Source of the DNA: an uncultured Gammaproteobacteria bacterium
Lineage (GTDB): Bacteria > Pseudomonadota > Gammaproteobacteria > CAYNNN01
DNA length: 64,000 nucleotides
Assembly (NCBI GenBank): GCA_964398665.1
Contig: CAYNNN010000001.1
Span: 45,415-109,414, forward strand
Direction: 5' to 3'
A program made the position numbers and the translations under genes. The notes under the pieces are model-generated. The model had not been told where the DNA came from. It saw nothing but the letters and a program-made list of their open reading frames with translations, and did no database searches. Below, piece by piece: positions 6,900-55,808 of this stretch. Each line of letters opens with the position of its first letter. Within the stretch, counting starts at the first letter, position 1.

Positions 6900-7635
6900 G
6901 GCTATGCAGGTAATGGTTCCCAGATACAATCCCTGGCAGGGGTGGCTGGGTTTAGTTCTCGCCCTGGGTTTGCACGCGAGTGCCTTGTACGGACTGCTAC
7001 TCTTGCGCCCCGCTCGGACGCCGCCCGTACCGGTGACCTGGATCAGCCTGGCAACCCTCGCGCCTCAGCCCCAACCGGTACCAACCCCGGTGGTCGAAAC
7101 GCCCAGGGTGGAAACACCGCTCCCCGAACCTGCGCCGGTAGCGGCCGTGGTAACCCCGAAAGCTACTGTAGCCCGGCAGCCCGAGGTCAAGCCGGAACCC
7201 AAGCCCCGGCCCAAGCCGCAGCCTAAACCCAAGGCAAAATCGGTACCTACACCCCGTCAGCAACCGCCGGTGGCCACACCAGTCGAAACTGCGCCGCCGG
7301 TGGCCCAGACCCAACCGGTGCCCCAGCCGGTGGCAACACCCCTGGACCCTGTGATCCCGGCCCGGTTCAATGCGGCCTACCTGAACAACCCTGCCCCTGC
7401 CTATCCGGCCCTGGCCCGACGCCTGGGTGAACAGGGCAAAGTCCTGTTACGTGCCCATGTCCTGCCCAGCGGCAAGCCGGAGACTGTCGAGATTCAGGAA
7501 TCTTCCGGCAGCCAGCGTCTGGATGTTGCCGCCCGCGATGCGGTAGCCCGCTGGCAGTTCATTCCAGCCCGGCAAGGCGAAGTGGCCCTGGCCGCCTGGG
7601 TGGTGGTTCCCATTCATTTTCATCTGGAACGTTAA
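6898..7635 (+). CDS. tonB: energy transducer TonB
   Basis: N-terminal TM segment, a Pro-rich PKP/EPxP repeat spacer, and a C-terminal TonB domain (NPAPAYPALARRLGEQGKVLLRAHVLPSGKP...). Confidence 0.85.
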   Translation: MAMQVMVPRYNPWQGWLGLVLALGLHASALYGLLLLRPARTPPVPVTWISLATLAPQPQPVPTPVVETPRVETPLPEPAPVAAVVTPKATVARQPEVKPEPKPRPKPQPKPKAKSVPTPRQQPPVATPVETAPPVAQTQPVPQPVATPLDPVIPARFNAAYLNNPAPAYPALARRLGEQGKVLLRAHVLPSGKPETVEIQESSGSQRLDVAARDAVARWQFIPARQGEVALAAWVVVPIHFHLER

Positions 7636-7636
7636 C

Positions 7637-8377
7637 ATGCTGAGTTTCAATCCCTACGATTTCTGGGCACGCAGCGATGCCATTGCCCATGCGGTGCTGA
7701 TTATCCTGGCGCTCTTGTCAGTGGCCAGCTGGAGCATCATTTTTGCCAAAAGCGGGCGCCTGAGCCGGATGCGCTGGCTGGCGGGTCCGGCATTGAATCA
7801 ATTCTGGTCAGCGCCGCGCTGGGAGGTAGGCTTGTCGGCCTTGCGCAAGCTGCCTTTATTTGCCCATCTGGCCCAAAGCGGTTGGCTGGCCGTACGGCAT
7901 CAACAACAGCATTGCCAGGGTCAACCACACCTGGACGCCGCCTTGCCCCTGAGCGATGCGGTCACCCGCGCCTTGCGTCAGGCGCTACATCAGGCCAGCC
8001 ATCAACTGGAAAGCGGCCAGACCTTGTTGGCTTCCGTGGGTTCTACCGCGCCCTTCATCGGCCTGCTGGGTACTGTCTGGGGTATTTATCATGCGCTGGC
8101 CCAGATCGGCCTCAGTGGTCAGGCCAGTCTGGAGCAGGTCGCCGGTCCAGTGGGCGAGGCCCTGATCATGACGGCTATCGGCCTGTTTACAGCCATTCCA
8201 GCCGTGCTGGCCTTCAATGCCTTCAATCGCACCCAGCGGGCCATCCTGGCGGAACTGGATGCATTTGCCTATGATCTACACGCCTATTTCACAACTGGCC
8301 AACCCTTGTGCAAGGCCGCACCGGCCAGTGCCCCGGAAACGCCAGGCCCGGCAGTCCTGGTGGCGGAGCAAATCTGA
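7637..8377 (+). CDS. exbB: MotA/TolQ/ExbB proton channel protein
   Basis: Three-TM ExbB/TolQ topology and motifs. Its stop codon overlaps the start of the next gene (ATGA). Confidence 0.85.
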   Translation: MLSFNPYDFWARSDAIAHAVLIILALLSVASWSIIFAKSGRLSRMRWLAGPALNQFWSAPRWEVGLSALRKLPLFAHLAQSGWLAVRHQQQHCQGQPHLDAALPLSDAVTRALRQALHQASHQLESGQTLLASVGSTAPFIGLLGTVWGIYHALAQIGLSGQASLEQVAGPVGEALIMTAIGLFTAIPAVLAFNAFNRTQRAILAELDAFAYDLHAYFTTGQPLCKAAPASAPETPGPAVLVAEQI

Positions 8378-38662: not shown

Positions 38663-41299
38663 ATGCCCTGGCTACCCGATCCGGCGGCGGAGCTTAAAAC
38701 GCCGCCTCACTCCTTACAGGCTGAGCAGGCCGTACTGGGTGCGTTGTTGCAGGACAATAGCGCCTGGGAGCGTATTGCCGATCGCCTGAGCGAGGTGGAC
38801 TTTTATCGGCTGGAGCACCGCCTGCTGTTTGCTGCGATTCGGGAGCTGGCCGAAGCGGGCCAGCCTTTCGATGTCGTAACGCTGGCTGACTGGCTGAATC
38901 AGCGTCAGCGCCTTGATGGCGCGGGTGGTTTGAGCTACCTGACCAGCCTGGCCCAGAATACGCCGAGTGCCAGCAACATTGTCACCTATGCCGACATCGT
39001 ACGGGAACGCGCCCTGTTGCGGGAGCTGATCCGTACCGCCAGTGATGTCGCCCAGATGGCCCACTTCCCCAAAGGCCAGTCCAGCCGGGAAATTCTGGAC
39101 AAGGCCGAAGCTCAGGTTTTTGCCATTGCCGAGCGCCACGCACGGGGCAGCGGGGGCTTTGCTCCGATCAAGTCCATCCTGGCACGGGCGATGCAGCGCA
39201 TTGAGCAGCTCAATGAACAGGATAATCCCATCACCGGGGTTGCCACCGGTTTTGACGATTTTGACCAGATGACCAGCGGCCTGCAACCCTCTGATCTGGT
39301 CATTGTGGCCGGGCGTCCGGCCATGGGCAAGACCAGCTTTGCCATGAACATCGTCGAACATGTCATCCTGCACGACAAGCGCCCGGTGGCGGTATTCAGC
39401 ATGGAAATGTCCGGGGAACAACTGGCAACCCGCATGCTGTCTTCGCTGGGCCGCATTGATCAGAGCAAGGTACGCACCGGCAGGATTGCCGAGGACGAAT
39501 GGCCCAGAATTGCCTCGGCCATCAATTTGCTGTCCAGTGCCCCGCTGTTTATTGACGATACCGGTTCCCTGACCCCGACTGAAGTCCGTGCCCGCGCCCG
39601 GCGCTTGAAACGCGAACAGCGCGACCTGGGTCTGGTGATGGTGGATTATCTCCAGTTGATGCAGGTGGCAGGAGGGGGTGAAAGCCGGGCCAATGAAATC
39701 TCGGAAATTTCCCGGTCCCTGAAGGCCCTGGCGCGCGAGCTGCACGTGCCGGTGTTGGCGCTGTCCCAGTTGAATCGGAATCTGGAACAACGTCCCAACA
39801 AGCGTCCGGTCATGTCGGATTTACGGGAATGCGTTACGGGCGATACCCTCGTGCTGCTGGCTGATGGTCGCCGATTGCCGGTGCGCACGTTGGTTGGGCA
39901 AACCCCGCAGGTCTGGTCGGTAACGTCCACCGGTGTTCTTGAGGCAGCGGCTACCGACCGGATTTGGTCGGTGGGGCGTAAGCCCCTGCTCCGTATCAGT
40001 CTTGCCAGTGGGCGCAGCATCCGCTGCTCTCTGGAGCATCGTCTACGGGGCTTGTGGGCCTGGAAACAAGCGGGTGAACTGCAAGCAGGCGACTGGTTAG
40101 CCATTGCCCGCCGGGTACCTGAGCCGCAGCAGCCACAATCCTGGTCTGAACCGGCCCTGATCCTGCTGGCGCATCTGGTGGGGAATGGGCGTTATGTCAA
40201 GCATCAGCCACTGCGTTACACCACGGCTAGTGAAGAAAATAGCCAAGCTGTCACGGCAGCAGCGCAGACTTTTGGCGCCATGGTAGCCCGTCATGCGGGA
40301 AAAGGCCCCTGGCACCAGCTGGTTATCAGTGATGGCGGCAACCACTGGCCTCCAGAGGGAATAAGCCAGTGGCTCAAGGCGTTGGGCATTTTTGGGCAAC
40401 GTTCTACTGAAAAGCGCCTGCCTACGGGCATATTTCAGCTTGCAAATTCGCAACTGGCTTTATTTCTAAGGCATTTATGGGCAACCGATGGCAGCATTCA
40501 CCTGGGTGCCAACAGGCCGCGCATTTTCTTTGCAAGCGCGAGCGTAGCGTTGGTGCACGATGTAGCAGCCCTGCTCCTGCGTTTTGGCATCATTGCCAGT
40601 GTTCGTCATGTCATTCAGGCTAATCACCAGAAAGGCCGGTTTAGCGCCGATGTTTCCGGTGCCGCCCAACAGCAAATTTTTCTGCGTGAGATCGGCGCGT
40701 TTGGGCCACACCAGGCAGCAGCTGCACAACTGCATGCTTACCTGGAAACGGTCACGCCCAATCCTGATGTGGACACCTTGCCTGAGGAGATTTTTACTTA
40801 TATCCGCACGCAAATGCACGACCGTGGCATCAGCCAGCAGCGTATGACCAGGCTGCGGGGTCCTGCGTATGGCAGCACCGCCCGCTTCAACTTTGCACCG
40901 ACTCGGACCACTGTGTGCAGTTATGCCGAACTGCTTGATGACCCCCAGTTACATCTCCTGGCCCAGGGCGATTTGTTTTGGGATCGGGTTGTACGGGTAG
41001 AGCCGGATGGAGAAGAAGAACTCTTTGATCTGACAGTGCCTGGCAATGCGTGTTGGCTGGCTGATGGGATTGTCAGCCATAACTCGGGATCGATAGAGCA
41101 GGATGCTGATGTGATCGTTTTTATTTATCGGGATGAAGTTTATAACGAAAACAGCCCGGAGAAGGGCACGGCAGAAATCATCATCGGCAAGCAGCGCAAT
41201 GGCCCAACCGGTATAGTACGCCTGACCTTTCTGGGCCAGCATACCCGGTTTGAAAATTATCTGGCACCGGAGACTTACGCGAGCCTGGGGGGTAATTGA
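38663..41299 (+). CDS. dnaB: replicative DNA helicase DnaB, intein-containing precursor
   Basis: 878 aa against about 460 for DnaB. The N- and C-exteins are typical DnaB (Walker A GRPAMGKTSF...; C-terminal ...GSIEQDADVIVFIYRDEVY...), split by an insert at ...MSDLRE|C...HN|SGSIEQ. Confidence 0.9.
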   Translation: MPWLPDPAAELKTPPHSLQAEQAVLGALLQDNSAWERIADRLSEVDFYRLEHRLLFAAIRELAEAGQPFDVVTLADWLNQRQRLDGAGGLSYLTSLAQNTPSASNIVTYADIVRERALLRELIRTASDVAQMAHFPKGQSSREILDKAEAQVFAIAERHARGSGGFAPIKSILARAMQRIEQLNEQDNPITGVATGFDDFDQMTSGLQPSDLVIVAGRPAMGKTSFAMNIVEHVILHDKRPVAVFSMEMSGEQLATRMLSSLGRIDQSKVRTGRIAEDEWPRIASAINLLSSAPLFIDDTGSLTPTEVRARARRLKREQRDLGLVMVDYLQLMQVAGGGESRANEISEISRSLKALARELHVPVLALSQLNRNLEQRPNKRPVMSDLRECVTGDTLVLLADGRRLPVRTLVGQTPQVWSVTSTGVLEAAATDRIWSVGRKPLLRISLASGRSIRCSLEHRLRGLWAWKQAGELQAGDWLAIARRVPEPQQPQSWSEPALILLAHLVGNGRYVKHQPLRYTTASEENSQAVTAAAQTFGAMVARHAGKGPWHQLVISDGGNHWPPEGISQWLKALGIFGQRSTEKRLPTGIFQLANSQLALFLRHLWATDGSIHLGANRPRIFFASASVALVHDVAALLLRFGIIASVRHVIQANHQKGRFSADVSGAAQQQIFLREIGAFGPHQAAAAQLHAYLETVTPNPDVDTLPEEIFTYIRTQMHDRGISQQRMTRLRGPAYGSTARFNFAPTRTTVCSYAELLDDPQLHLLAQGDLFWDRVVRVEPDGEEELFDLTVPGNACWLADGIVSHNSGSIEQDADVIVFIYRDEVYNENSPEKGTAEIIIGKQRNGPTGIVRLTFLGQHTRFENYLAPETYASLGGN
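39830..41083 (+). other. DnaB intein (~418 aa) with LAGLIDADG-type homing-endonuclease core
   Basis: Begins CVTGDTLVLLADG (Cys1, block A) and ends ...GIVSHN followed by Ser+1. Internal dodecapeptide-like motifs are LLAHLVGNGRY and LFLRHLWATDGSIH. The host site is the same DnaB site used by known DnaB inteins. Confidence 0.8.
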
Positions 41300-43622: not shown

Positions 43623-44561
43623 ATGAAGCCACCGTTGGCCGTAGTTGTGGGTCTGGTGCGCGATGCCCAGGGGCGCCTCCTGCTGGCGCACCGGCAGGTG
43701 CGCCAATCTTACCGGGACTATTGGGAATTTCCCGGGGGCAAGCAAGAACTGGGGGAAACGCCGGCATTTACCCTGCAACGTGAACTGGCAGAAGAAATCG
43801 GCATTACGGTCACTCAGGCCCGGCCCTGGCGCCAGCTTTGCTATGCCTATCCCGAATACACCGTGCAGCTGGCGGTCTGGGAAGTACAGGCCTATCAGGG
43901 CACGCCGTGGGGTCGTGAAGGTCAGGCGCTGGCTTGGGTAGCCCCGGAAGCTTTGGCTACCTATCCAGTCTTGCCGGGTAATCGTGCGCTTGTCGCCGCC
44001 CTGCAACTCCCGAGTCTCTACGCCATTACGCCGCCGCAGCAGGCGCTGACCGACTGGGCGTCGTTACAGGGCCTGTTGGCAGGTGGGGTCAGGCTCGTGC
44101 AATGGCGGCGGGCGCACTTGGCCGAGGCCGAGGTTGCACAGGCATTACGCACTTGCCAGGCAGCCGGGGCACAGTTGCTGGTCAATACCACGCCTGAGCA
44201 GGCTGCGGCCTGGGGTGCGGCTGGCGTGCATTTGTCGGTACGTGCGCTGAGGGCCTGGACGGCGGGCGGGGCAGCTCGGCCTGCGGGCTTGCACTGGATT
44301 GCGGCTTCTACCCATGACCCTGCAGAATTGGCTCAGGCCCAGGCTGCGGGAGCGGATTTTGCAGTATTAGGACCAGTGGCAGCGAGCATGACCCATCCCC
44401 AGACCCAGCCACTGGGTTGGGCGCAGTGGTCAGCCTGGGTGCGGCAGCAGGCGCTGCCTGTCTATGCCCTGGGCGGCCTGCAACGGGCCGATTTGGCGGC
44501 GGCCTTGGCGGCGGGGGCACAGGGCGTGGCAGCGATACGGGGTTTATGGCCGCAAGACTAG
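43623..44561 (+). CDS. mutT: Nudix hydrolase MutT fused to a thiamine-phosphate-synthase-like (TMP-TENI) domain
   Basis: Nudix box GGKQELGETPAFTLQRELAEEIGI, then a TIM-barrel ThiE-like C-terminal half. Confidence 0.8.
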   Translation: MKPPLAVVVGLVRDAQGRLLLAHRQVRQSYRDYWEFPGGKQELGETPAFTLQRELAEEIGITVTQARPWRQLCYAYPEYTVQLAVWEVQAYQGTPWGREGQALAWVAPEALATYPVLPGNRALVAALQLPSLYAITPPQQALTDWASLQGLLAGGVRLVQWRRAHLAEAEVAQALRTCQAAGAQLLVNTTPEQAAAWGAAGVHLSVRALRAWTAGGAARPAGLHWIAASTHDPAELAQAQAAGADFAVLGPVAASMTHPQTQPLGWAQWSAWVRQQALPVYALGGLQRADLAAALAAGAQGVAAIRGLWPQD

Positions 44562-45019
44562 GCGGCTGGGGCTTGCTCTGGCTGGGGCTGGCGCTGGGGG
44601 GCTTTTATCTGGCGCCCCGGTTGCGCCATTATCTGGACCATCGCACTGAAGCTTATCCTGTGCGGCAGCTGGGCAGCGTTTCATGCACGCCGGGGACAGC
44701 CTGTAGCGTCCAGCAGGCGGAGTACCAACTGCGCCTGGCCCTGCCCGCAGACCTGCGGACCCTGACACCGCAGGTGGTCCATCTGGCAGTAACAGGTCTG
44801 GCGCCTGAACGACTGGAAGCCCAATTTTTGATGCAGGGCATGGAGATGAATTTACCGCCTACCTCATTTCAGCCTACCCGGATGCCGGGCCTCTGGCAGG
44901 CAACCGTGATCCTGCCTATCTGTAGCCTGGGGCGCAGCGATTGGCAGATGCAGGTACGTGCCGTGGCGGCTAACCAGCCATTTCAGGCTGAATTCAACTT
45001 CCAGTTGACGCGGCCATAA
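44546..45019 (+). CDS. hypothetical small membrane-anchored protein
   Basis: An internal ATG gives MAARLGGWGLLWLGLALGGFYLAP (a TM segment) followed by about 130 aa of soluble domain. It overlaps the mutT 3' end, and its 3' end overlaps coaE convergently. Coding status is uncertain. Confidence 0.35.
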   Translation: MAARLGGWGLLWLGLALGGFYLAPRLRHYLDHRTEAYPVRQLGSVSCTPGTACSVQQAEYQLRLALPADLRTLTPQVVHLAVTGLAPERLEAQFLMQGMEMNLPPTSFQPTRMPGLWQATVILPICSLGRSDWQMQVRAVAANQPFQAEFNFQLTRP

Positions 45020-45611
45020 GGGCAAGCCGACCATATTCAAGATGCAGGCGCTGCACCTGAGCACCCAAGGCCTGAAGGTTGGTGGTATTCTCAATGACCT
45101 CATGCGCATGGGCCAAGCGTTCGGCATCACTGCACTGCACTGCGATGATGGCCTGCGCTTCAGCCTGAGTCAGGCCATCGCGGGTCATCAGGCGCTGAAG
45201 CTGCTGCTGGGGCGAGGTAGTGACCACCAGCACCCGCTGTAGCCAGGCAGGTCGTCCGGTTTCGACCAGCAAGGGAATGACAAACAGGCCATAAGCTGCC
45301 GTGCAGGTAGCCGCCCAGGCCTGCATCCGGGCATCAATCAGCGGGTGCAGCAAGGCTTCCAGCCCCCGGCGGGCCTCGGCGTGGGTAAAGATGTGCTGGC
45401 GCAACCGGGTCCGGTCGAGCGTGCCGTCGGGACGCAGCATGATCGGCCCAAACCGGGCTACGATGGCTGCCAGCGCCGGCTGGCCAGGCGCGACCAATTC
45501 CCGGCTGATGAGATCGGCGTCTGCAACCGGTACCCCCAGCGCGGCAAACTGGGCGGCAACAGCCGATTTACCGCTGGCAATTCCGCCGGTCAGGCCAATA
45601 GCGTATACCAT
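44994..45611 (-). CDS. coaE: dephospho-CoA kinase
   Basis: MVYAIGLTGGIASGKSAV... P-loop. Confidence 0.9.
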   Translation of the reverse strand: MVYAIGLTGGIASGKSAVAAQFAALGVPVADADLISRELVAPGQPALAAIVARFGPIMLRPDGTLDRTRLRQHIFTHAEARRGLEALLHPLIDARMQAWAATCTAAYGLFVIPLLVETGRPAWLQRVLVVTTSPQQQLQRLMTRDGLTQAEAQAIIAVQCSDAERLAHAHEVIENTTNLQALGAQVQRLHLEYGRLALMAASTGS

Positions 45612-45662
45612 GGGGTAACCTCAATTAACATTCAAATCAATATCAGAAGCTGTCTGGCGCAC

Positions 45663-47477
45663 ATGAGCACGACTGGCCGATACCTTTTATTATTATTTAT
45701 AATCAGTAGCTTATTTTCACTGTATGCCAGCTTTCTGGCCGTTGATCCCCTGGCGCAACGCAGCTGGCTTCCAGCCTACCTGATTTATCCACTAGCCTTG
45801 GCAACTGCCTTATGGGTATTGAGCCTGCTGCCGTTGTTGACTCAAACCGCCATCTCTGTCCGCTGGCAGCGCAGGCATCTGGGGGTTTTCCTGGCCATCC
45901 TGGCGGCATGGGGGTTCATGATCAGTCGCAATGCCCCGCAATTTAACATCGTTCAGGACGAATATGTGTTATCGGCAACCGCAATGAACTTGCATTATAA
46001 CCGGAGCGCTGCGGTCCCGAATCGTGGGCAATGGATTAATAACCAATATATTCTCTCAGATGGCTATCTGGATAAACGTCCTCTGTTTTTTCCGTTGGTG
46101 CTTGCCACACTCCATGATTTGCGGGGCTATGATGTGCAAAATGTCTTCTACCTGAATGCGCTGCTGGCATTGCTCTTGCTGTGGCTAAGCTATGTGCTGG
46201 TCAGGCGGCTGGGTGGAGATGATCTCAGTGCGTTATTTGCCGTCATGGCGTTGGCCTCCATTCCCCTCATCAGCCAAAGTGCTACCGGCGGTGGATTTGA
46301 GTTGCTCAATAGTGTGATGCTACTTGCCACTCTCTTGCTCGGTGCTCGCTTTAGCTGCAAGCCTGACCCACGAAGTTTAACGGCACTGGCTTACACAACT
46401 TTTCTCCTTGCCCAAACCCGCTATGAGTCTATTACGTTTGTCCTGGCAACGGGGGCACTCATCCTTTGGGTTTGGTGGCGAGAACAACGTATCATTTTAA
46501 CTTATCAAGTAGTCTTACTACCTTTATTGTTTATTTTGCCGATGCTGGCACTACAGGCCGTCGTGCTGGATCGCTACTGGTTGCAACTTGAGGATCATCA
46601 AGCGGCTGCCTTTACCTTGAATTATGCCTGGAATAATACAGCCAAGCTCATCGCTTATCTATTCCAGTTGAATCCCTACGGCGGCATGAATCCGGTCACT
46701 GCCAGTTTGCTGGTCTTTGGCCTCTTGGCCTTCCTGCGTCATTTACTGCGCCCGACCTATATCGCATTCAATCTGTTCCTTGTCATCGTATTGTGCAATT
46801 TGCTGCTGCTGATGGGATATTACTGGGGAGACATGAGCGATTTCAATGCGCGCAGATTACTGATTGTAACCCTGGTCATCATGGCCATCAGTACTGCCCT
46901 GGTGCTTAACCATTTCCCCAGGCTGCGCACGGGAGCAGGCATGGTTCTGGCGGCAGGATTTATCGGCATTACCATCCCCCATACTGGCCAACATGCTTAT
47001 GGCAATGCTATCCTGCTGCCCAAGGCAGATAGCTGGGCCTTGGCCTACTTGCGCGCTGATGATTGGGGAAATGAACGGATCTTGATTGCTAAAGATGTAT
47101 ATTTCTTTATTATTCAAAGATATAATGTGATAGGTACGGTTCATGCCCAACAGCGGGCAGAAAAGATTCGCCAGGCCAAAAATCATGCCATTGCTGATCC
47201 TTATGCTTACCAGACGTACTTTATCAACCCGGCGACTGGCAAGAAAAGCTATGTCAGCTGTCATGACATTAGCCCGCAATTTTCACTTGACCCATTGATA
47301 CATCGAGCGGTAGGCCCCTATTTATATGCCAGTATCGGTCGAGTGACAAACGTGCAGCCTGCGCCCTATGTGATGGAACAGGATGCAGCCTGTGCGCATG
47401 AAATACGCACTGGTAATGCCAACTTTCCCAAGCTGACTCAAGGGGTGCAGCAAAATTGGTTCAGCCATTATCCCTGA
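45663..47477 (+). CDS. large polytopic membrane protein, candidate GT-C-fold glycosyltransferase (paralog A), in low-GC insert
   Basis: ATG at 45663 (MSTTGRYLLLLFIISSLF...) lies after the coaE start. The track ORF extends further only in antisense. It has about 11-13 TM segments, an acidic DEY motif in the first predicted periplasmic loop, the motif YLDKRPLFFPLVLATLHD, and a roughly 150-aa soluble C-terminal domain. Local GC is visibly lower than the flanks. Confidence 0.6.
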   Translation: MSTTGRYLLLLFIISSLFSLYASFLAVDPLAQRSWLPAYLIYPLALATALWVLSLLPLLTQTAISVRWQRRHLGVFLAILAAWGFMISRNAPQFNIVQDEYVLSATAMNLHYNRSAAVPNRGQWINNQYILSDGYLDKRPLFFPLVLATLHDLRGYDVQNVFYLNALLALLLLWLSYVLVRRLGGDDLSALFAVMALASIPLISQSATGGGFELLNSVMLLATLLLGARFSCKPDPRSLTALAYTTFLLAQTRYESITFVLATGALILWVWWREQRIILTYQVVLLPLLFILPMLALQAVVLDRYWLQLEDHQAAAFTLNYAWNNTAKLIAYLFQLNPYGGMNPVTASLLVFGLLAFLRHLLRPTYIAFNLFLVIVLCNLLLLMGYYWGDMSDFNARRLLIVTLVIMAISTALVLNHFPRLRTGAGMVLAAGFIGITIPHTGQHAYGNAILLPKADSWALAYLRADDWGNERILIAKDVYFFIIQRYNVIGTVHAQQRAEKIRQAKNHAIADPYAYQTYFINPATGKKSYVSCHDISPQFSLDPLIHRAVGPYLYASIGRVTNVQPAPYVMEQDAACAHEIRTGNANFPKLTQGVQQNWFSHYP

Positions 47478-49249
47478 TGAAGCCTGCTCTCCTGATCCTG
47501 ATAAGCAGCAGTTTGGCTACGGTGCTGGCAGGAGTATTTCTGGACGCTACCTGGATAGGCTCCCATTACTACATTATCTTATTGACCTTAGGCCTATGGA
47601 TTTACTGGTCGGTGGTACGCCAAACGCTGACCTGCACAGCCACCACATGGGCTATCTTAGGCGTTAGTTTGCTGGGAACGTTATTTCTCGTTACCCGCGA
47701 GCCCATGATGTTCAAAAAGATTCCTGAGGAACCACAATCAGCACTGATAGCCATGAACCTCAGTGTGCAGCGCAAGCCAGTACTTACTGATCAAGGGATT
47801 ATGCAAGACCATGGGTTTGTTATAAAGCAGCCCTATCTTGACAAGCGTCCACTATTGTTCCCCTCGCTGCTGGCAGCCCTACACGACGGAATAGGCTATC
47901 ATCCTGGTAATGTATTTGTCCTCAATGCGATCCTGATATTTGTTTTATTAATGATATCAGCGTACATAGGATTACAACTCAATGGGTTCAGTGGAGCCAT
48001 CTTCACGATTGCCCTACTCCTGACTATCCCATTATTGGCCCAGCAGGCGACATCAGGCGGAGGAGAAATATTGCACTTGGTCATGCTGGCGAGCACGCTG
48101 CTGGCAGCCCAACGGTATCTGGCATCCCCAGACACCAACAAACTGATATCGCTACTGCTCAGTGGGTTGTTGCTGGCTCAGGTGCACACGGAGTCCGCGT
48201 TATTTCTATTACCCGTAGCGGCTGTTGCGTGTTGGGGCTGGTATAAGCAACGGCTGATTCAGCTCAATCAGAGTCTTGCCCTGATACCACTGTTATTGAT
48301 TCCCATCGTGATGCATCTGGTTTGGGTGCGGAGTTGGCCAGCCGGATTGGATTGGGGGAACAAGCTCTCGGTCAACTTGTTTGCAATGCTGGAATATTAT
48401 CTATGGTTGGCGCCATGGTCTTCAATGCACGCAACTATCGGCTGGCTCATCCTGCCCGGATTGGCCATTTTTAGCTACAGCAACCTACGAGCACTGCTGC
48501 TCGGCAAATCACTTGTTACGTCGCGGGGACCAATTCTGGTATTTGCGCCCTTCGTGTTGCTGAATCTATTGTTTCACCTTAGCCAGACCGAAGGTAATCC
48601 ACAGGAGCCGGCGCAAAGTGCGTTCACCTTGCCGCTGACACTTCTTGCCATTCTCGCCACCACGGCTCTGGTGCGCTTTACGCCACTTGTGATCAAAAGC
48701 AGCGCCATTTACCTGGCAGGCAATTTTTATTTTCTTACCTTACCGGCAACCAGCAGCCATTATTACACCACCGCATTGGGAGATGCCCATTATCTTCAGT
48801 GGGCGGAAAATTACTTTCGGCAGCGCCCCGCCACGGAGCGTTATCTGATCATCTCCAAAAAGAATGCGCTATTTTTGCTCAATCACCAATCCAGCCTCAT
48901 CCAGAACATTGCCATATTGCGTGCTACGCAAGTGCAGAACCTGCTGAACCAAAAGCTGGTGGATACTGTTTATGTCCTGCAGAGTCTCTATTTCGATCCC
49001 GTCACGCAAGATTTCCAGATAGCCCCCGGCCACGCACTGGGCAAGCAGTATCAATTGGAACCCCTAGCCCGCTACCGCTTTAATTTGATGGAGGTTGCGC
49101 AAATCAGCCAAGTGGTTGCCATCACGCCTGATCCTGCGGACAGACCCGCTCATTACCCAGGGTTCGTTGAAGAAGCGCGCACAGGCAAGTTACCCAGACC
49201 GCCGATCAGCCCGACACATATTCAGGAGCAGGCCCAGCGCCTGCCCTGA
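47477..49249 (+). CDS. large polytopic membrane protein, candidate GT-C-fold glycosyltransferase (paralog B)
   Basis: ATG at 47477 overlaps the stop of paralog A (ATGA). It has the same architecture and the shared motif PYLDKRPLLFPSLLAALHD, with a soluble C-terminal domain. It ends 10 nt from the pilD stop, and the two genes are convergent. Confidence 0.6.
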   Translation: MKPALLILISSSLATVLAGVFLDATWIGSHYYIILLTLGLWIYWSVVRQTLTCTATTWAILGVSLLGTLFLVTREPMMFKKIPEEPQSALIAMNLSVQRKPVLTDQGIMQDHGFVIKQPYLDKRPLLFPSLLAALHDGIGYHPGNVFVLNAILIFVLLMISAYIGLQLNGFSGAIFTIALLLTIPLLAQQATSGGGEILHLVMLASTLLAAQRYLASPDTNKLISLLLSGLLLAQVHTESALFLLPVAAVACWGWYKQRLIQLNQSLALIPLLLIPIVMHLVWVRSWPAGLDWGNKLSVNLFAMLEYYLWLAPWSSMHATIGWLILPGLAIFSYSNLRALLLGKSLVTSRGPILVFAPFVLLNLLFHLSQTEGNPQEPAQSAFTLPLTLLAILATTALVRFTPLVIKSSAIYLAGNFYFLTLPATSSHYYTTALGDAHYLQWAENYFRQRPATERYLIISKKNALFLLNHQSSLIQNIAILRATQVQNLLNQKLVDTVYVLQSLYFDPVTQDFQIAPGHALGKQYQLEPLARYRFNLMEVAQISQVVAITPDPADRPAHYPGFVEEARTGKLPRPPISPTHIQEQAQRLP

Positions 49250-49258
49250 TCAGTCCGG

Positions 49259-50119
49259 CTAGCCGGGTAAAAAACCACGCTGCAAAGCCTCACCGCCCAA
49301 TAAGGCCAGCCAGCCTGCAACAGCCAGAAATGGGCCAAAGGGAATCGGGGCTTCGCGGCCTAAGCCCCGGAGCCATAAAAACAGCGTGCCGATCACCGCA
49401 CCGCTTAACGAGGCCATCAGGATGATCGGGAGCAGGGCCTGCCAGCCCAGCCAGGCACCCAGCAGGGCCAGGAGTTTGAAGTCGCCATAACCCATGCCAT
49501 GCTTGCCGGTGACCAGGCGAAAGAGCTGATAAATACTCCATAAACTCAGATAGCCGCCGATAGCGCCGAGGATGCTGGCCTGGGGCGTGGTCAGCACACC
49601 CCATACGCTTAGCCCTAAACCCAGCCAGAGCGCCGGTTGGGTCAGGGTGTCAGGCAGCAGTTGATGATCCAGGTCAATAAAACTGAGCGCAATCAGCAAC
49701 CAGGTGAGTAATACTGCGGCCAGCATGGCGCCGGTGGGGCCAAAACGCCAGGCTACCGCCAGGGTCATGACGCCAGTCAGCAATTCTACCAGTGGATAGC
49801 GCAGGGGAATCGGCGTGCGACAAAACCCGCACCGACCGCGCAGGTAGAGATAACTGAGTACCGGAATGTTTTGCCAGGCCCGAATCGGTTGCCTGCACTG
49901 CGGGCAGTGAGAAGCCGGCGTGGCCAGATTGAACGGCCCTGAGGGTGCATCCGCCGGCAGTTGCAGGTATTCCTGGCAGTCCCGGCGCCAGGTGCGCTCC
50001 AGCATGAGCGGGATGCGGTGGATGACCACATTCAGAAAGCTGCCGACCACCAGCCCCAACAGCAGCGCATAGCCGAGGTAAATCGCTGAGTAGCGAAGAA
50101 AAAATTCTTCCAGGGACAT
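49259..50119 (-). CDS. pilD: prepilin peptidase / N-methyltransferase
   Basis: MSLEEFFLRYSAIYLGYALLLGLVVGSFLNVVIHRIP..., the Cys tetrad CxxC...CxxC, and the conserved Asp residues. Confidence 0.9.
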   Translation of the reverse strand: MSLEEFFLRYSAIYLGYALLLGLVVGSFLNVVIHRIPLMLERTWRRDCQEYLQLPADAPSGPFNLATPASHCPQCRQPIRAWQNIPVLSYLYLRGRCGFCRTPIPLRYPLVELLTGVMTLAVAWRFGPTGAMLAAVLLTWLLIALSFIDLDHQLLPDTLTQPALWLGLGLSVWGVLTTPQASILGAIGGYLSLWSIYQLFRLVTGKHGMGYGDFKLLALLGAWLGWQALLPIILMASLSGAVIGTLFLWLRGLGREAPIPFGPFLAVAGWLALLGGEALQRGFLPG

Positions 50120-50156: not shown

Positions 50157-51449
50157 CTATTTACCCAGCACGGCCTGGCCGAGCTTGAAGATGGGCAGAT
50201 ACATGGCGATGATCAGCCCACCGATCAGAATCCCCAGCACCGACATAATCAAAGGCTCCAGCAGGCTGGTCAGGGCGTCGATGGCATTATCCACTTCTTC
50301 TTCATACCAGTCGGCTGCTTTGCCCAGCATATCGTCCAGCGCACCCGATTCTTCACCGATGGCCACCATCTGGACCACCATATGCGGGAACAGCCCTACC
50401 TGACGCATGGCCAACTGGAGTTGCTGGCCTGTCGCAATATCATCCCGGATCCGGTAACACGCCTCGGTGTAAACCGCGTTGCCTGTCGCCCCGGCAACCG
50501 AATCCATCGCCTCGACCAAGGGCACCCCGGCAGCAAACATGGTGGAGAGGGTGCGGCAAAAGCGGGCAATGGATGATTTATGGCCGATTTCACCGACTAC
50601 CGGAATTTTCAGCACGACACGGTCCAGAAAGACCCGGAAAGACCGTGAACGCTTGTACACTGCGTTAAAAGCTGCATAAACGGCACCAATACCGCCCAGA
50701 ATGGCCCACCACCAGGCCTGCATGAAGTAGGAGAGATTGACGACGAATTTGGTAAATGCCGGCAAGTCGGCACCAAAGCCCTTGAACAGGTTCTCAAACT
50801 GTGGCACCACAAAAATCAGCAGGATCGCGGTGACGATGAAGGCGACGATGATCACGGCCACTGGATAGAACATGGCCTTCTTGACCTTGTTCTTGATGGA
50901 CTCTGTGCGCTCCATGTAAGTGGCAATCTTGTCCAGCAGGGTTTCCAATACCCCGGCCTGTTCACCCGCCTGCACCAGATTGCAGAATAAATCATTAAAT
51001 TGCAGCGGATGCTTGCGCAAACCATCCGTGAGGGTGGCGCCGCCCTCAATATCGGTCTTAATTTCCAGCACCAGATCCTGCATGCTGGGGTTGCTGTGGC
51101 CCCGCCCGACGATTTCGAACGCCTGTACCAGTGGTACCCCGGCTTCCATCATGGTGGCCAGCTGTCGGGCAAATACGGTGATATCTTTGGTTTTAATGGG
51201 CTTCTTGCTGGCACCGAACAACGGCTTGGACTTGGGCTTGACTGTGCGGGGGGTAATGCCCTGACGACGCAGGTCGGCCTTGACGACCGCAATGCTGGGC
51301 GCACGTGTCTCGCCCTTGAGAACCTTACCGCGCTTGTCGGTACCCTCCCAACTGAAATAGCCTTCCTGAACCACTGTTTTCTTGGCAGGGGCGGCCTTGT
51401 TGAAGGCGCTGACGGATTTCTTGATGCCGCCGGTATTGGGGCTAGCCAT
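50157..51449 (-). CDS. pilC: type IV pilus platform protein PilC (GspF family)
   Basis: Two GspF repeats (…ATMMEAGVPLVQAFEIV… and …LSTMFAAGVPLVEAMDSV…). Confidence 0.9.
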   Translation of the reverse strand: MASPNTGGIKKSVSAFNKAAPAKKTVVQEGYFSWEGTDKRGKVLKGETRAPSIAVVKADLRRQGITPRTVKPKSKPLFGASKKPIKTKDITVFARQLATMMEAGVPLVQAFEIVGRGHSNPSMQDLVLEIKTDIEGGATLTDGLRKHPLQFNDLFCNLVQAGEQAGVLETLLDKIATYMERTESIKNKVKKAMFYPVAVIIVAFIVTAILLIFVVPQFENLFKGFGADLPAFTKFVVNLSYFMQAWWWAILGGIGAVYAAFNAVYKRSRSFRVFLDRVVLKIPVVGEIGHKSSIARFCRTLSTMFAAGVPLVEAMDSVAGATGNAVYTEACYRIRDDIATGQQLQLAMRQVGLFPHMVVQMVAIGEESGALDDMLGKAADWYEEEVDNAIDALTSLLEPLIMSVLGILIGGLIIAMYLPIFKLGQAVLGK

Positions 51450-51452
51450 AGG

Positions 51453-53183
51453 TTACTCCTTGGTCACGCGGTTAATTTCTTCCAGGCTGGTCAGACCAGA
51501 CTTGATTTTTTTGATGCCTGATTCACGCAAGTTGCTGATACCTTCACGCTTGGCCTGTTCCCCCAGTTGCAGCGAAGTACCACCCTCCATAATCAGCTTG
51601 CCCATGGCTTCCGAAATGGGCATGACCTGATAAAGCCCGACCCGACCTTTGTAGCCTTTCTTGCAGCTATCGCAGCCAGGACCTGGGCCATACAGGGTGA
51701 ATGGAGTGGCGAGATCAGCCTCGGTAAAACCTTCCTTGAGCAGGGCTTCGGCAGGCACTTTTTCTTCTTTCTTGCACAAGGGACACAAGCGCCGGGCCAA
51801 CCGCTGGGCGATGATCAAGACGACGGAGGAAGCGATATTGTAGGTGGGTATCCCCATGTTCATCAGGCGGGTCAGGGTCTGGGGCGCATCGTTGGTGTGC
51901 AGGGTGGACAGCACCAGATGCCCGGTCTGGGCCGCTTTTACCGCAATTTCCGCTGTTTCCAGATCCCGGATCTCACCCACCATGATCACATCCGGGTCCT
52001 GGCGCAAAAAGGCCCGTAGGGCGACCGGGAAGGTCATGCCGGTTTTGACGTTGACATTGACCTGATTGATGCCTGGCATATTGATTTCCACCGGGTCTTC
52101 CGCTGTGGAGATATTCCGGTCCACCGTGTTCAGGATACCCAGCCCCGTATACAGCGAGACGGTCTTGCCACTTCCGGTAGGCCCGGTCACCAGAATCATG
52201 CCATAGGGTTTGCTGAGTGCGCTCAGATAGGCCTTGCGTTGTTCTTCCTCGTAACCCAAGGCTTCAATCCCGAAGGTGGCACTGGTTGGGTCCAGGATCC
52301 GCATCACCACCTTTTCGCCAAACAGGGTCGGGCAGGTATTGACCCGGAAATCAATGGCCCGGTTTTTTGACACGGCCAGTTTGATCCGGCCATCCTGCGG
52401 CACGCGGCGTTCAGAAATATCCATCCTGGCCATGACCTTGAGCCGGGCAATCAAGCGGGGCGCCAGCGCCAGCGGGGGCTGAGCCACCTCATGCAGCAGG
52501 CCATCCTGGCGAAACCGCACCCGGAAAACCTTCTCGTAAGGCTCGAAATGCAGGTCGGAAGCACCCGACTTGATGGCATCCAGAAGAATCTTGTTCACGA
52601 ACTTGACGACCGGCGCATCATCAATATCCGGTCCGGCCGCTTCTGCGGTCGCGGGACCGCCGGGGTCATCGCCACTCAGGATGTCCAAAGCACCCAAGTC
52701 GTCATCACCCAGCATATCCTTCATGGAGGTATCGTTGGCCGCCATCGCCCGGTCTATGGCACGCCGGAGCTTGTCATCTTCCACCAACACGGCTTCTACC
52801 GCCAGCTTGGTGAAGAATTTGACTTCGTCAAGCGCCTGGAGATTGGTCGGGTCGGAAACGGCCACAAACAGCCGCTGGCCACGCTTGAAGAGCGGCAGGG
52901 CGCCATGCTGGCGAATCAGATCTTCCTTGACCAACTTGAAGATGGCCGGGTCCCCTTCCAGGGCTTCAATGTCAAACAGCGGCACCCCAAATTCATGCGA
53001 GGCAGCCAAGGCAATTTTGTTGGCGGCCAAAATCTTCTTGTCTACCAGGTGGGTGACAAAGGCTGCCTTTTGTTTGAGCGCATCCTGACAGGCCTGTTCC
53101 GCATCAGCCTGGCTGAGCAGATTATCGCGGATCAACCGGCGGGCGAGGCCGCTTAAGGGCGCTTTGGAGGGGGTGGTGGCCAT
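51453..53183 (-). CDS. pilB: type IV pilus assembly ATPase PilB
   Basis: N-terminal GSPII_E_N domain, Walker A GPTGSGKT, Asp and His boxes, and the Zn tetracysteine (CPLCKKEEK…CDSCKKG). Confidence 0.95.
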   Translation of the reverse strand: MATTPSKAPLSGLARRLIRDNLLSQADAEQACQDALKQKAAFVTHLVDKKILAANKIALAASHEFGVPLFDIEALEGDPAIFKLVKEDLIRQHGALPLFKRGQRLFVAVSDPTNLQALDEVKFFTKLAVEAVLVEDDKLRRAIDRAMAANDTSMKDMLGDDDLGALDILSGDDPGGPATAEAAGPDIDDAPVVKFVNKILLDAIKSGASDLHFEPYEKVFRVRFRQDGLLHEVAQPPLALAPRLIARLKVMARMDISERRVPQDGRIKLAVSKNRAIDFRVNTCPTLFGEKVVMRILDPTSATFGIEALGYEEEQRKAYLSALSKPYGMILVTGPTGSGKTVSLYTGLGILNTVDRNISTAEDPVEINMPGINQVNVNVKTGMTFPVALRAFLRQDPDVIMVGEIRDLETAEIAVKAAQTGHLVLSTLHTNDAPQTLTRLMNMGIPTYNIASSVVLIIAQRLARRLCPLCKKEEKVPAEALLKEGFTEADLATPFTLYGPGPGCDSCKKGYKGRVGLYQVMPISEAMGKLIMEGGTSLQLGEQAKREGISNLRESGIKKIKSGLTSLEEINRVTKE

Positions 53184-53254: not shown

Positions 53255-53680
53255 CTACAGCGCGATATCTTTGGTGAAACTGGCCTGCTCCACACCGTTG
53301 TAGGAAACGCGCAAGGTGTAGCAGGTCTGGGTTGCGGTAGTGGCACAAGCCTGAGTGCTGATGGCGTAGGTATACAGCCCCTTGTCGCCATTGGGAACCC
53401 AGTTCAGGGTGGTCTTGAGCGTGCAGGTTGCACAACAGCCCTCGGCAGTCGCCGCACAGGGCGTCCATTGAATGCCATTCAGGGCGGTAATGACGCCGTT
53501 ATTCTCGATGCCATAATTTTCCACGGCCAGGCGCAGGTTTTCCATATTGGCGCGAGCGGCCCCCCGCTGACCTTCACTGATGAAACCGTTATAGGCCGGG
53601 ATGGCGAAGGCTGCCAGGATGCCCACAATGGCAACCACGATCATCAGCTCGGCCAAGGTGAAACCGTGTTGGGTCTGCAT
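53255..53680 (-). CDS. pilA: type IVa pilin (paralog 1; Cys/Thr-rich C-terminal domain)
   Basis: [31 protein letters not shown] is a class III leader with Gly-1/Phe+1 and Glu+5. The 135-aa mature protein has 6 Cys and a Thr/Ala-rich stretch (CAATAEGCCATCTLKTT, ACATTATQTC). Confidence 0.85.
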   Translation of the reverse strand: MQTQHGFTLAELMIVVAIVGILAAFAIPAYNGFISEGQRGAARANMENLRLAVENYGIENNGVITALNGIQWTPCAATAEGCCATCTLKTTLNWVPNGDKGLYTYAISTQACATTATQTCYTLRVSYNGVEQASFTKDIAL

Positions 53681-53759: not shown

Positions 53760-54212
53760 TTAGATCTGCGCGCCGTTGATGCTGACGGTTTCCTGGGCCA
53801 GGTCAAGATATTGCGGACGATCCAGGGTGATGGTGGAGTTGGCGACCGAGCCATCGGCGAAGGTATTGTCCAGGGTCACGCCGATGACCCCGTTGGTGGT
53901 GCCGGCACTGGCCGCATAGGCAGGCACGCCACCTTCCGGTGCCGCCTTGTTTTCGGGGTTCAGAACCTCGGTAATAAGTTCGTCCGTGTTAGCGCAGCAG
54001 GTGGGAGTACCATTACGGGCCACCACGGCAACGGCCTTGGACAACTCCGACTTGGCAGAGCGGTAGCCTTCGTCATAGTTGCTGGTCACCTTGGACATCT
54101 TGGCTTCACGGATGTAGTTGTTGTAAGCCGGGATGGCGATGGCGGCCAAGATGCCGATGATGGCAACGACGATCATCAGTTCGATTAAGGTAAAACCTTG
54201 CGTCTTTTTCAT
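53760..54212 (-). CDS. type IVa pilin (paralog 2)
   Basis: The ATG at 54212 has AGGAG 7 nt upstream. [38 protein letters not shown]..., 150 aa, with a single CC pair. The longer track ORF is a spurious 5' extension. Confidence 0.85.
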
Positions 54213-54275
54213 GGTCATGCTCCTGAATGGGTGATTACCACGCGGGCCACATGCCCTGCGCTTGCCCTGGAATAT

Positions 54276-54448: not shown

Positions 54449-54883
54449 CTAAATTTCGGCCGGGTCTATCACGGTGGATTCGGCACCCATGCCGAAATAA
54501 TCGGGGCGATCGATCACCAGCATACGGCCATTCAGACTGATGCCGACCACCCCATTGGTGGCGTCAGGCATTGTCGCGTAGGCCGGGACATAACCGGCTG
54601 GAGCCAGCTTGTTATCTGGATTGATCACGTCGATCCATTCCAATGTCGTATGGTCGGTCAAAGGCAGACCACGGGCACGCTGGACTTCAATGCGTCCAAA
54701 CTCGGCGCGGGCCGCACGATAAGCCTCATCATAATTACTGATGACATGACTGATTTGGGCCTCCCTGATGTAGCTGTTGTAAGCCGGGATGGCGAAAGAC
54801 GCGAGCATGCCGATGATGGCCACGACGATCATCAGCTCGATGAGCGTGAATCCGGATTGCCGCCGGCCGGGATGCTGTGCCAT
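54449..54883 (-). CDS. type IVa pilin (paralog 3; longer leader, no Cys)
   Basis: The ATG at 54883 gives [43 protein letters not shown].... It is closely related to paralog 2, and the mature protein has no cysteines. Confidence 0.85.
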
Positions 54884-54938: not shown

Positions 54939-55808
54939 CAGACTCTCCCAGCGCTTAGCATCATCCTGCCGTGTCGCAATGAGGCCCTGAGCCTGCCGCA
55001 ATTGCTCAGCGAGCTGCATCAGATTTATCCGGACGCCGAGCGGATCGTGGTGGACGATGGCTCTGACGACGACTCTGCGGCCATCGCCCGCCAGTGCGGC
55101 GCCCTGGTCGTACGCCATCCCTACCCGCAGGGCAACGGCGCGGCCATCAAGACCGGGGCGCGCACTGCAACTGCGCCGGTGCTAGTGTTCATGGACGCCG
55201 ATGGCCAGCACCAACCGGATGATATTGCCCGGCTGCTGGCCAAACTGGATGTCGGTTATGCGATGGCGGTAGGCGCCCGTTCCGCCCAATCTCAGGCCAG
55301 TGTCGGGCGCTGGGCGGCCAACACCCTGTATAACCGCCTGTCCAGTTGGATGGTGGGCCAGCGGATTGAAGACCTGACTTCCGGGTTTCGGGCCGTACAG
55401 GCGCCCTTGTTTCGGGAGTTCCTGTATCTGCTGCCCAATGGCTTTTCCTACCCGACCACGATCACGATGGCCTTCTTCCGCAGCGCCTATCCGGTCGCCT
55501 ATGTGCCGATTGTGGCCCTGCAACGCCAGGGCAAAAGTCACATCCGCCCGCTGCGGGATGGCGCCCGCTTCCTGTTGATCATCTTCCGGGTTGCCACCTT
55601 GTATGCCCCGGTAAAATTATTCCTGCCCATCAGCCTGACTTTCTTCACGCTGGGCTTGGGTAATTATCTCTATACCTTCATGGTCGCCGGGCGCTTCACC
55701 AACATGAGTGCCCTGCTGTTCATCACCGCGATGCTGGTATTTCTCATCGGCCTGATTTCAGAACAGATCACCAACCTGCTCTTTGCCTACGGGGCCAAGC
55801 GTGAGTAG
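54933..55808 (+). CDS. GT2 polyprenyl-phosphate sugar synthase (GtrB/ArnC/DPM-synthase-like) with C-terminal double TM anchor
   Basis: [14 protein letters not shown]..., VVDDGSDD and FMDADGQH (DxD), then two C-terminal TM helices, the GtrB/ArnC architecture. 291 aa. Confidence 0.85.

Follow-up and report, generated by a model that had tools for sequence, protein, structure and literature searches.

A probably acquired pair of predicted GT-C glycosyltransferase genes between pilD and coaE of an uncultured gammaproteobacterium

GT-C enzymes transfer a sugar from a polyprenyl-phosphate-linked donor on the membrane's periplasmic side to an acceptor, and the canonical number of their membrane helices is 11. 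Glycosylation of pilins alters the antigenicity of the pilus and blocks pilus-specific phages, and to our knowledge only two types of pilin-glycosylating enzymes have been described. Here we report on two adjacent paralogous genes, called A and B, which lie between coaE and pilD in the type IV pilus (pil) locus of an uncultured Gammaproteobacteria bacterium (assembly GCA_964398665.1, contig CAYNNN010000001.1). The window, that is, the whole stretch of DNA that was analyzed, comprises 64,000 nucleotides (nt; positions 45,415 to 109,414 of the contig, forward strand), and the positions given below are counted from its first nucleotide. The original prediction, made from the sequence alone, had proposed that this two-gene region is a horizontally acquired insertion encoding GT-C-like proteins of the pilin glycosylation machinery. 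Predicted structures leave us with little doubt that A and B are GT-C glycosyltransferases, and comparison with the pilD loci of relatives indicates that the 3.6-kb cassette is, in all likelihood, an acquired insertion in a short spacer.

TfpW, the D-arabinofuranosyltransferase of the group IV pilin of Pseudomonas aeruginosa, is a protein of 646 amino acids (aa) with 11 membrane helices (preprint 10.1101/2020.04.19.049825). It has DDx and YX6PFX7P motifs as well as a TPR domain at the C-terminus, is encoded directly after pilA, and transfers a periplasmic lipid-linked sugar onto Ser/Thr residues of the pilin (10.1101/2020.04.19.049825). What TfpW and the A/B pair have in common is that they are GT-C membrane enzymes (predicted ones, in the case of A and B) whose genes belong to a type IV pilus locus. 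The pair differs in that the first periplasmic loop carries QDEY (A) or PEEP (B) and no DDx, that the C-terminus is an alpha/beta domain, and that YX6PFX7P is absent; in addition, the genes lie 4 kb from the nearest pilin gene, on the opposite strand, between coaE and pilD. No TPR domain was matched by Pfam in A or B, and an assignment of the pair to the TfpW type was rejected on the TPR domain, the DDx motif, and the position after pilA. Of the layout that had been likened to ArnT, PMT, and TfpW, the GT-C fold was thus borne out by the models and by Foldseek, while the TfpW-type part was not. An assignment to the TfpO/PglL-type O-oligosaccharyltransferases was also rejected, as the Wzy_C (O-antigen ligase) domain gave no Pfam match at E ≤1 in A or B.

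The protein O-mannosyltransferases (PMTs) of family GT39 (the yeast Pmt1-Pmt2 heterodimer, the Pmt4 homodimer, and the Mycobacterium tuberculosis PMT) have in common with A an Asp-Glu pair in the first extracytoplasmic loop, and they use a polyprenyl-phosphate-monosaccharide donor, which by analogy would be expected for A and B as well. PMTs are obligate dimers of paralogs (PMC12705809), which fits the conserved tandem arrangement of the A/B family, and NCBI gives the name “glycosyltransferase family 39 protein” to some of the homologs. The pair differs from PMTs in lacking both the GT39 Pfam modules and any sequence-level match to a solved PMT, in having two extra N-terminal helices and a ~155-residue alpha/beta C-terminus rather than a MIR domain, and in an identity of 10–14% in structural alignments. 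Membership of GT39 was rejected because neither PMT (PF02366) nor PMT_4TMC (PF16192) had a match at E ≤1 in A, B, or their orthologs P0002 and P0275 (described below). EmbA and EmbB, the mycobacterial arabinosyltransferases, are encoded by adjacent paralogous GT-C genes, form a heterodimer (PDB 7bvf), and use a polyprenyl-phosphate sugar donor. ArnT, the lipid A L-Ara4N transferase (GT83, PMT_2), differs from the pair in several respects: no sequence match to it was obtained in a PDB profile search, no arn genes lie around the cassette, B is under the PMT_2 threshold, and ArnT acts singly, not as a tandem paralog pair.

In three-component periplasmic glycosylation (GtrA/GtrB/Gtr*), a GT2 polyprenyl-phosphate-sugar synthase works with a periplasmic GT-C enzyme (PMC11127046). 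Genes of both types occur in the pil locus of the window and in the verrucomicrobial (Opitutae-type) loci described below. Differences from the Gtr systems are that no GtrA-like flippase gene was seen, that the cassette consists of two GT-C genes only, and that the known Gtr systems modify O-antigen and have a single GT-C enzyme rather than a pair. GT-C enzymes in pilus loci (TfpW) and the logic of a GT2 plus a GT-C enzyme are already known. What distinguishes the A/B family is that no curated model (in NCBIfam) and no characterized member (in the searched literature) was found for it, that its architecture is not that of TfpW, that it is organized in pairs, and that it is linked to pilin-like genes in Verrucomicrobia, a linkage which does not appear in the searched literature.

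Sequence profiles gave little. Pfam PMT_2 (PF13231) matched A with 27.9 bits, a narrow pass over the gathering threshold of 26.1, and P0002 with 20.0 bits, under the threshold, while B and P0275 were without a match. No NCBIfam model matched A, B, P0002, P0275, or the Opitutae-type paralogs, and a profile of 121 family members searched against all PDB sequences yielded no GT-C match and one chance match at E 1.1. Because sequence methods alone cannot place the family, structure was needed, and AlphaFold models were built from family alignments. The model of A had a predicted local distance difference test score (pLDDT) of 92.5 and a predicted template modeling score (pTM) of 0.93, and that of B had 90.2 and 0.92, respectively. 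The top 38 Foldseek matches were all GT-C enzymes, and MFS, MATE, and CLC transporters appeared at a probability of ≤0.13 only. A fold search with the model of B scored 21.5 for AglB, 21.3 for ALG12, and 21.1 for Pmt4, down to 10.8 for PimE, with the next score at 7.9. Both models contain ~13 membrane helices, the N-terminus exceeding the canonical set by two. The first periplasmic loop is long (~residues 89–159 in A) and includes a helix and a beta-hairpin, and the C-terminus is formed by a mixed alpha/beta domain of ~150–160 residues with a 4–6-stranded sheet. The helix number and the C-terminal domain agree with the 11–13 helices and the ~150-aa C-terminal domain expected at the outset; a simple hydropathy scan undercounts the helices (10 and 8), and those of AlphaFold were used instead. 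In the models, A and B thus have what defines the fold class, namely, a polytopic protein of 11–16 helices with the GT-C fold, and the A/B family is a distinct, uncharacterized, and compact GT-C family.

Conserved residues point in the same direction. Among the 121 homologs, E100, R139, and H151 (A numbering) are invariant, D99 is 98% conserved, and D137, K138, P140, R253, Y254, E255, and S256 are conserved at ≥97%. The motifs are intact in A (D99-E100, D137-K138-R139-P140, H151-D152, and R253-Y254-E255-S256), and two that had been singled out earlier, DEY (D99-E100-Y101 in A) and YLDKRPL(F/L)FP, are present and define the family across the 121 members. D99-E100 opens the first periplasmic loop, after helix 70–88 and before the loop helix 97–113. 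In solved GT-C enzymes the catalytic acidic residues are located at the first periplasmic loop, as exemplified by the catalytic D74 in extracytoplasmic loop 1 (EL1) of the M. tuberculosis PMT (PMC12331936). The acidic residues of the GT-C class are thus found in A as the conserved D99-E100, and B has E-E there, within PEEP instead of QDEY. B retains E100, DKRP, HD, and ES, and is changed at a series of near-invariant sites (D99E, H111S, R121Q, F212G, N216H, R253H, Y254T, Y386Q, W388E, and R398A). Since P0275, the ortholog of B in another organism, keeps QDEY and AQTRYES, these changes are specific to the copy in the window. Judging from these substitutions, B of the window may have an altered specificity or may serve chiefly as a partner subunit.

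The cassette stands out by its composition. Its guanine-plus-cytosine (GC) content is 0.505, compared with a window mean of 0.598 (standard deviation over 3.6-kb windows, 0.022), which makes the segment between coaE and pilD the lowest-GC 3.6-kb window across the 64 kb. GC at third codon positions (GC3) is 0.547 in A and 0.587 in B vs. 0.64–0.76 in 16 neighboring genes, and codon adaptation to the neighbors is 0.53 and 0.49, respectively, vs. 0.58–0.73, the lowest values in the set. Because GC3 is independent of amino-acid content, its low value shows that a hydrophobic protein make-up is not the whole explanation of the AT-richness. The claim of an AT-rich insert therefore withstood all three measures, windowed GC, GC3, and codon adaptation, each of which deviates from the flanks, whereas the flanks themselves do not have the ~63% GC first assigned to them, with the pilB/pilC side measured at 0.56–0.58.

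The junction at which the cassette lies is conserved in relatives. With the PilD of the window as a query (tblastn, one genome per species), 80 loci were returned at a PilD identity of 36–62%; the closest matches (57–62%) were Methylococcales-type and other gammaproteobacterial metagenome-assembled genomes. Enough downstream sequence was available at 73 of these loci, and coaE directly follows pilD on the same strand in 50 of the 73, in accordance with the view that the two genes are normally contiguous. The projected pilD-coaE gap in relatives has a median of ~22 nt and a maximum of 905 nt, and that in the window is 3,647 nt. None of the 80 pilD loci contained a relative of A or B, so that the same two genes with normal GC are not a feature of this position in the compared relatives. 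The region thus behaves as an insertion should, with the lowest GC of the window, a deviant GC3, and absence from 80/80 loci, and has what characterizes a horizontally acquired islet, i.e., deviant composition together with absence from relatives at a conserved junction. Signatures of mobility were sought as well: there is no integrase or transposase gene, the cassette consisting of A and B only, there are no tRNA genes in the 40–58 kb segment of the window that could have been a target, and direct or inverted repeats, terminators, and mobility genes searched for at the borders gave nothing convincing.

Two observations concern transcription around the cassette. coaE is now separated from pilD by A and B and is without a pilD promoter upstream. 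A sigma-70-like hexamer pair, GTGAAA-17-AATAAT, is located at 45692–45720 on the minus strand, inside the AT-rich 5′ end of gene A, in an AT-rich run which had already been flagged in the original prediction. It is the sole sigma-70-like match upstream of coaE on its strand and, as a consensus match only, is a candidate replacement promoter for coaE; the region has seven sigma-70-like matches vs. a shuffle expectation of 4.6 ± 2.1, which is not above chance. Because no terminator is present between pilD and the antisense strand of B, read-through from pilD would give antisense RNA across B and A.

A and B overlap as TGATG, the stop codon of A (TGA) sharing its end with the start codon of B (ATG), and both are encoded on the strand opposite to pilD and coaE, as had been stated for two translationally coupled genes of 604 and 590 aa. 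The proteins are 29% identical over 525 aa (E 1e-47) and are therefore paralogs. A word-indexed search over 5.8 billion protein clusters returned 118 relatives of A, among which P0002 is 46% and the others ~25–36% identical; the named ones belong to Opitutae or other Verrucomicrobia and are labeled either as family 39 glycosyltransferases or as hypothetical. The same search returned no close relative of B. In a HMMER scan of 1.84 billion representatives, 1,288 clusters passed E ≤1e-30, and relaxing the cut-off to E ≤0.001 raised the number to no more than 2,122. The family is compact, and the profile does not merge it with ArnT or PMT enzymes. The scan also brought up P0275, whose identity is 38% to B (over 586 residues) and 98% to a truncated gene after P0002 on contig L001. 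P0002 and P0275 are hence adjacent genes in another organism and form the one orthologous A-B pair found elsewhere; only two organisms among the 5.8 billion clustered proteins have this subclade. The orthologous cassette (contigs L001/L171) lies at a different genomic site, between a divergent ccmA and a convergent sucC-like gene, and is likewise AT-richer than its flanks (GC 0.515 and 0.42 vs. 0.574).

In a neighbor-joining tree, the only type of tree built and one in which some outgroup distances are saturated, A grouped with P0002 (bootstrap 96), B with P0275 (95), and all four together (93), and the first-position and second-position paralogs of the Opitutae-type loci formed clades of their own (94 and 91). 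Since A groups with P0002 and B with P0275, and these two are adjacent, the pair was inherited as a unit; on these sequences, the proteobacterial pair is an old two-gene unit. The four proteins form a clade outside both Opitutae-type paralog clades; a transfer from the sampled Opitutae-type clade was therefore rejected, and the duplication that gave rise to A and B was separate from the Opitutae-type one. Tandem organization is conserved, as a second paralog lies directly downstream in 57 of the 59 homologous loci whose downstream sequence is long enough. That A and B act together is suggested by the conservation of the tandem arrangement, by the translational coupling, and by the one-sided decay of motifs in B, and we consider it rather probable that they function as a pair. 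In a distant, low-GC (0.38) branch of the family (L168, 4575–9761), three paralogs of 566, 581, and 586 aa stand in tandem; a phosphoglucomutase/phosphomannomutase gene comes next, and no pilin-like gene is found nearby.

The sister clade in Verrucomicrobia links the family to pilin-like genes. A scan of metagenome contigs with the family alignment gave 80 more loci, which together with L003, L004, and L006 made 83 loci scored by script. Three Opitutae-type loci have a common order, in which nadD and rsfS are followed by one to three small genes carrying the prepilin N-terminal methylation motif, then by the GT-C pair, the gene of a 420–485-aa protein, two further PMT_2-type GT-C genes (these on the opposite strand), and a GT2 gene. 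One to four pilin-like open reading frames (ORFs) lie directly upstream of the pair, on the same strand, at 61 of the 62 loci with ≥800 nt of upstream sequence; they encode 114–118 aa with the consensus ...KGFTLVEIMIVVVIIGLLAAMAIPAFQKVR...RTITYAP, and only one such ORF was found elsewhere in the scanned loci (617 kb). The sole exception is L003, whose pilin-like copies are truncated at the N-terminus: at 7309–7939, two pilin-like genes are called with 72 and 86 aa and without the N-terminal methylation helix, which could reflect decay or an assembly or gene-calling error. The Opitutae-type clusters (L006, 6500–17893; L003; L004; L088–L167) have up to five GT-C genes beside the multi-copy pilin-like gene, whose one to four copies per cluster are nearly identical, 116 aa long, and end in RTITYAP. 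The 420–485-aa protein has a weak GT87 match.

The pil locus of the window has glycosylation genes of its own, encoded 5.7 kb from the cassette in the case of the GT2 gene (Table 1). The nearest PDB sequences of this GT2 are ArnC, dolichyl-phosphate-mannose (Dol-P-Man) synthase, and GtrB; its best NCBIfam matches, AglJ, a Dol-P-hexose transferase, and PpgS, are all below their cut-offs. Judging from these matches, the GT2 could supply a lipid-linked sugar donor. The adjacent 666-aa protein, for which there is no PDB sequence match, has an FMFDDAY motif near the N-terminus and C-terminal TPR matches which are weak and below threshold; this motif and these matches would fit the TfpW layout. Homologs of both are found near pilB in two relatives (L014 and L037), and a GT2 homolog alone in two others (L010 and L068). 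Because of these homologs and of their host-like GC3, the GT2 and the 666-aa protein are regarded as the resident pair and A and B as the addition. A and the 666-aa protein have no sequence similarity (E 0.41). A relationship of the 666-aa protein to the extra PMT_2 genes of the Opitutae-type loci was rejected (no similarity, E 0.16), and the GT2 of the window is a distant relative of the Opitutae-type GT2 (24% identity).

Table 1. Features of the pil locus around the cassette (window coordinates).
Feature	Position	Strand	Evidence or remark
coaE (dephospho-CoA kinase), left flank	44994-45611	-	Pfam CoaE E 4e-61
Spacer of 51 nt, left border of the presumed insertion	45612-45662	.	Divergent starts of coaE and gene A
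Gene A, 604 aa, predicted GT-C-fold glycosyltransferase, family motifs intact	45663-47477	+	ATG at 45663
Gene B, 590 aa, predicted divergent GT-C paralog of A	47477-49249	+	ATG at 47477
Spacer of 9 nt, right border of the presumed insertion, without terminator	49250-49258	.	B and pilD converge here with their stop codons
pilD (prepilin peptidase), right flank	49259-50119	-	Pfam A24_N_bact and Peptidase_A24
pilC	50157-51449	-	Pfam T2SSF
pilB	51453-53183	-	Pfam T2SSE and MshEN
Type IV pilin gene 1, 141 aa, candidate acceptor	53255-53680	-	Pfam N_methyl, NCBIfam pilin models
Type IV pilin gene 2, 152 aa, candidate acceptor	53760-54218	-	Pfam N_methyl, NCBIfam pilin models
Type IV pilin gene 3, 144 aa, candidate acceptor	54449-54883	-	Pfam N_methyl, NCBIfam pilin models
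GT2, polyprenyl-phosphate-sugar synthase type (ArnC/DPMS/GtrB-like), C-terminal membrane helices	54933-55808	+	Pfam Glycos_transf_2 E 3e-27
Polytopic protein of 666 aa, TfpW-like layout (“TMTC” in the original prediction), outside the insertion	55783-57783	+	Translation

The tandem pilin genes sit upstream of pilB on the same strand, and pilins 2 and 3 are clear paralogs; pilR, pilS, and dsbC are further genes of the pil locus beyond the GT2 and the 666-aa protein. On the other side, a 200-aa ORF without a Pfam match (44417–45019, plus strand) is flanked by a NUDIX/ThiE fusion gene and by coaE, with whose 3′ end it shares 26 nt; in the matching Logan contig it is called with 157 aa. Farther away, at 38663–41299 (plus strand), the window encodes a DnaB replicative helicase with an intein and a LAGLIDADG homing endonuclease (Pfam Intein_splicing, LAGLIDADG_3), which coincides with a local GC dip to 0.54–0.57 at ~40250–41250.

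Taken together, these results allow a mechanism to be proposed. On the periplasmic side, A and B would receive a sugar from a polyprenyl-phosphate-linked donor and pass it on to an acceptor. Catalysis would take place at the Asp-Glu pair with which the first periplasmic loop begins, and the DKRP arginine and the RYES motif would probably hold the donor phosphate. The two proteins may form a heterodimer like Pmt1-Pmt2 or EmbA-EmbB, in which A would be the fully competent member and B the diverged one, or else they may catalyze consecutive reactions. The donor would possibly come from the GT2 of the pil locus, at least one of the three type IV pilins 4 kb away would most likely be the acceptor, and the pilus would gain a second glycan modification beside that of the resident GT2/TfpW-like pair. 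A pilin is the most plausible acceptor because of the position in the pil locus, the nearby donor-type GT2, and the pilin linkage of the sister clade. We infer the donor type, the formation of a dimer, the pilin acceptor, and the biological role, which may be surface variation or protection from pilus-specific phages. Given the ccm-adjacent ortholog pair and the placement on the opposite strand, we hold the pilin acceptor to be plausible at somewhat short of an even chance, and the whole of the favored account, an inserted paired GT-C cassette with pilin as its likely acceptor, to be evenly balanced.

Several points weigh against this account. A and B, on the strand opposite to pilBCD, share a transcript with no pil gene, and genes for donor synthesis or for a flippase are missing from the cassette itself. 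B, without D99 and R253/Y254, may be inactive. The orthologous cassette of L001/L171 has no pilin motif in the 12 kb available, and distant members of the family (L168 and L169) are tandem arrays of two or three genes without pilin-like neighbors. The Opitutae-type loci are probably one clade, so the figure of 61/62 reflects conserved synteny and not 61 independent events. As for the insertion itself, no mobility genes, tRNA, or flanking repeats explain how it occurred, and the compared relatives, with a PilD identity of only 47–62%, are too distant to date it. Some of these points would be accounted for if the acceptor were not a pilin but lipid A or the lipopolysaccharide (LPS) core (as in the case of ArnT), a different exported protein, or a glycan of the periplasm or the cell surface, the pil position being incidental and reflecting a short spacer that tolerates insertion. 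Such an acceptor has a real though less than even chance of being the right one, since the orthologous cassette lies away from pil genes, distant members lack pilin neighbors (with the sugar-phosphate mutase gene following the array of L168), the pair is encoded opposite to pilBCD, and the fold matches ArnT, Aft, and ALG enzymes, with lipid or glycan acceptors, approximately as well as the protein-modifying PMT and oligosaccharyltransferase (OST) enzymes. It is opposed by the almost invariable linkage of the sister clade to pilin-like genes, by the presence in the window locus of pilin-glycosylation-type genes and three pilins, and by the absence of arn or LPS genes nearby.

Two further explanations concern the origin and the nature of the genes. 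A and B might be old residents whose AT-richness comes from their hydrophobic amino-acid make-up. The bare borders would suit such a history, closer relatives than those compared (57–62% PilD identity at best) might share the genes, and a low GC at second codon positions (GC2) is also seen for other membrane proteins that the window encodes (0.394 in pilC). Nevertheless, we consider it improbable, because GC3 is lower (0.55/0.59) than in all 16 neighbors and codon adaptation is the lowest, none of the 80 relatives carries the genes, the ortholog pair resides at another genomic site where it is also AT-richer than its flanks, and the subclade is confined to two organisms. That A and B are instead transporters or permeases (MFS, RND, or similar) could be argued from their being large polytopic membrane proteins and from a faint RND match of P0275 (E 0.004, 15 bits). 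This identity was ruled out by the fold searches, which contradict it and returned GT-C enzymes in place of a transporter or permease fold, and we give it almost no weight. Beyond the preferred account of an inserted GT-C pair that may act on pilins, a broader and rather doubtful proposal is that A, B, and ~1,300 relatives would constitute a hitherto unrecognized, pilin-dedicated paired class of GT-C O-glycosyltransferases, distinct from TfpW (TPR) and TfpO/PglL (Wzy_C), working as Pmt1/Pmt2-like heterodimers on filaments of the type IV pilin-like kind, native to Opitutae-type Verrucomicrobia and moved into Proteobacteria in the form of a two-gene cassette, where they would add a second and independently acquired glycan layer, e.g., against pilus-specific phages.

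Even if the acceptor is not a pilin, A and B represent a well-defined, confidently modeled, and uncharacterized GT-C family whose tandem-pair organization needs explaining. If the family acts on pilins, it would be a third type of pilin-glycosylating enzyme, built as a paralog pair. This would widen the known range of pilus decoration and add protein-acceptor GT-C enzymes to the glycoengineering set. The locus would then also be a clean natural case of a core pilus operon that has taken up a glycosylation cassette, and the clusters of pilin-like genes, several GT-C genes, and a GT2 gene in Verrucomicrobia would find an explanation.

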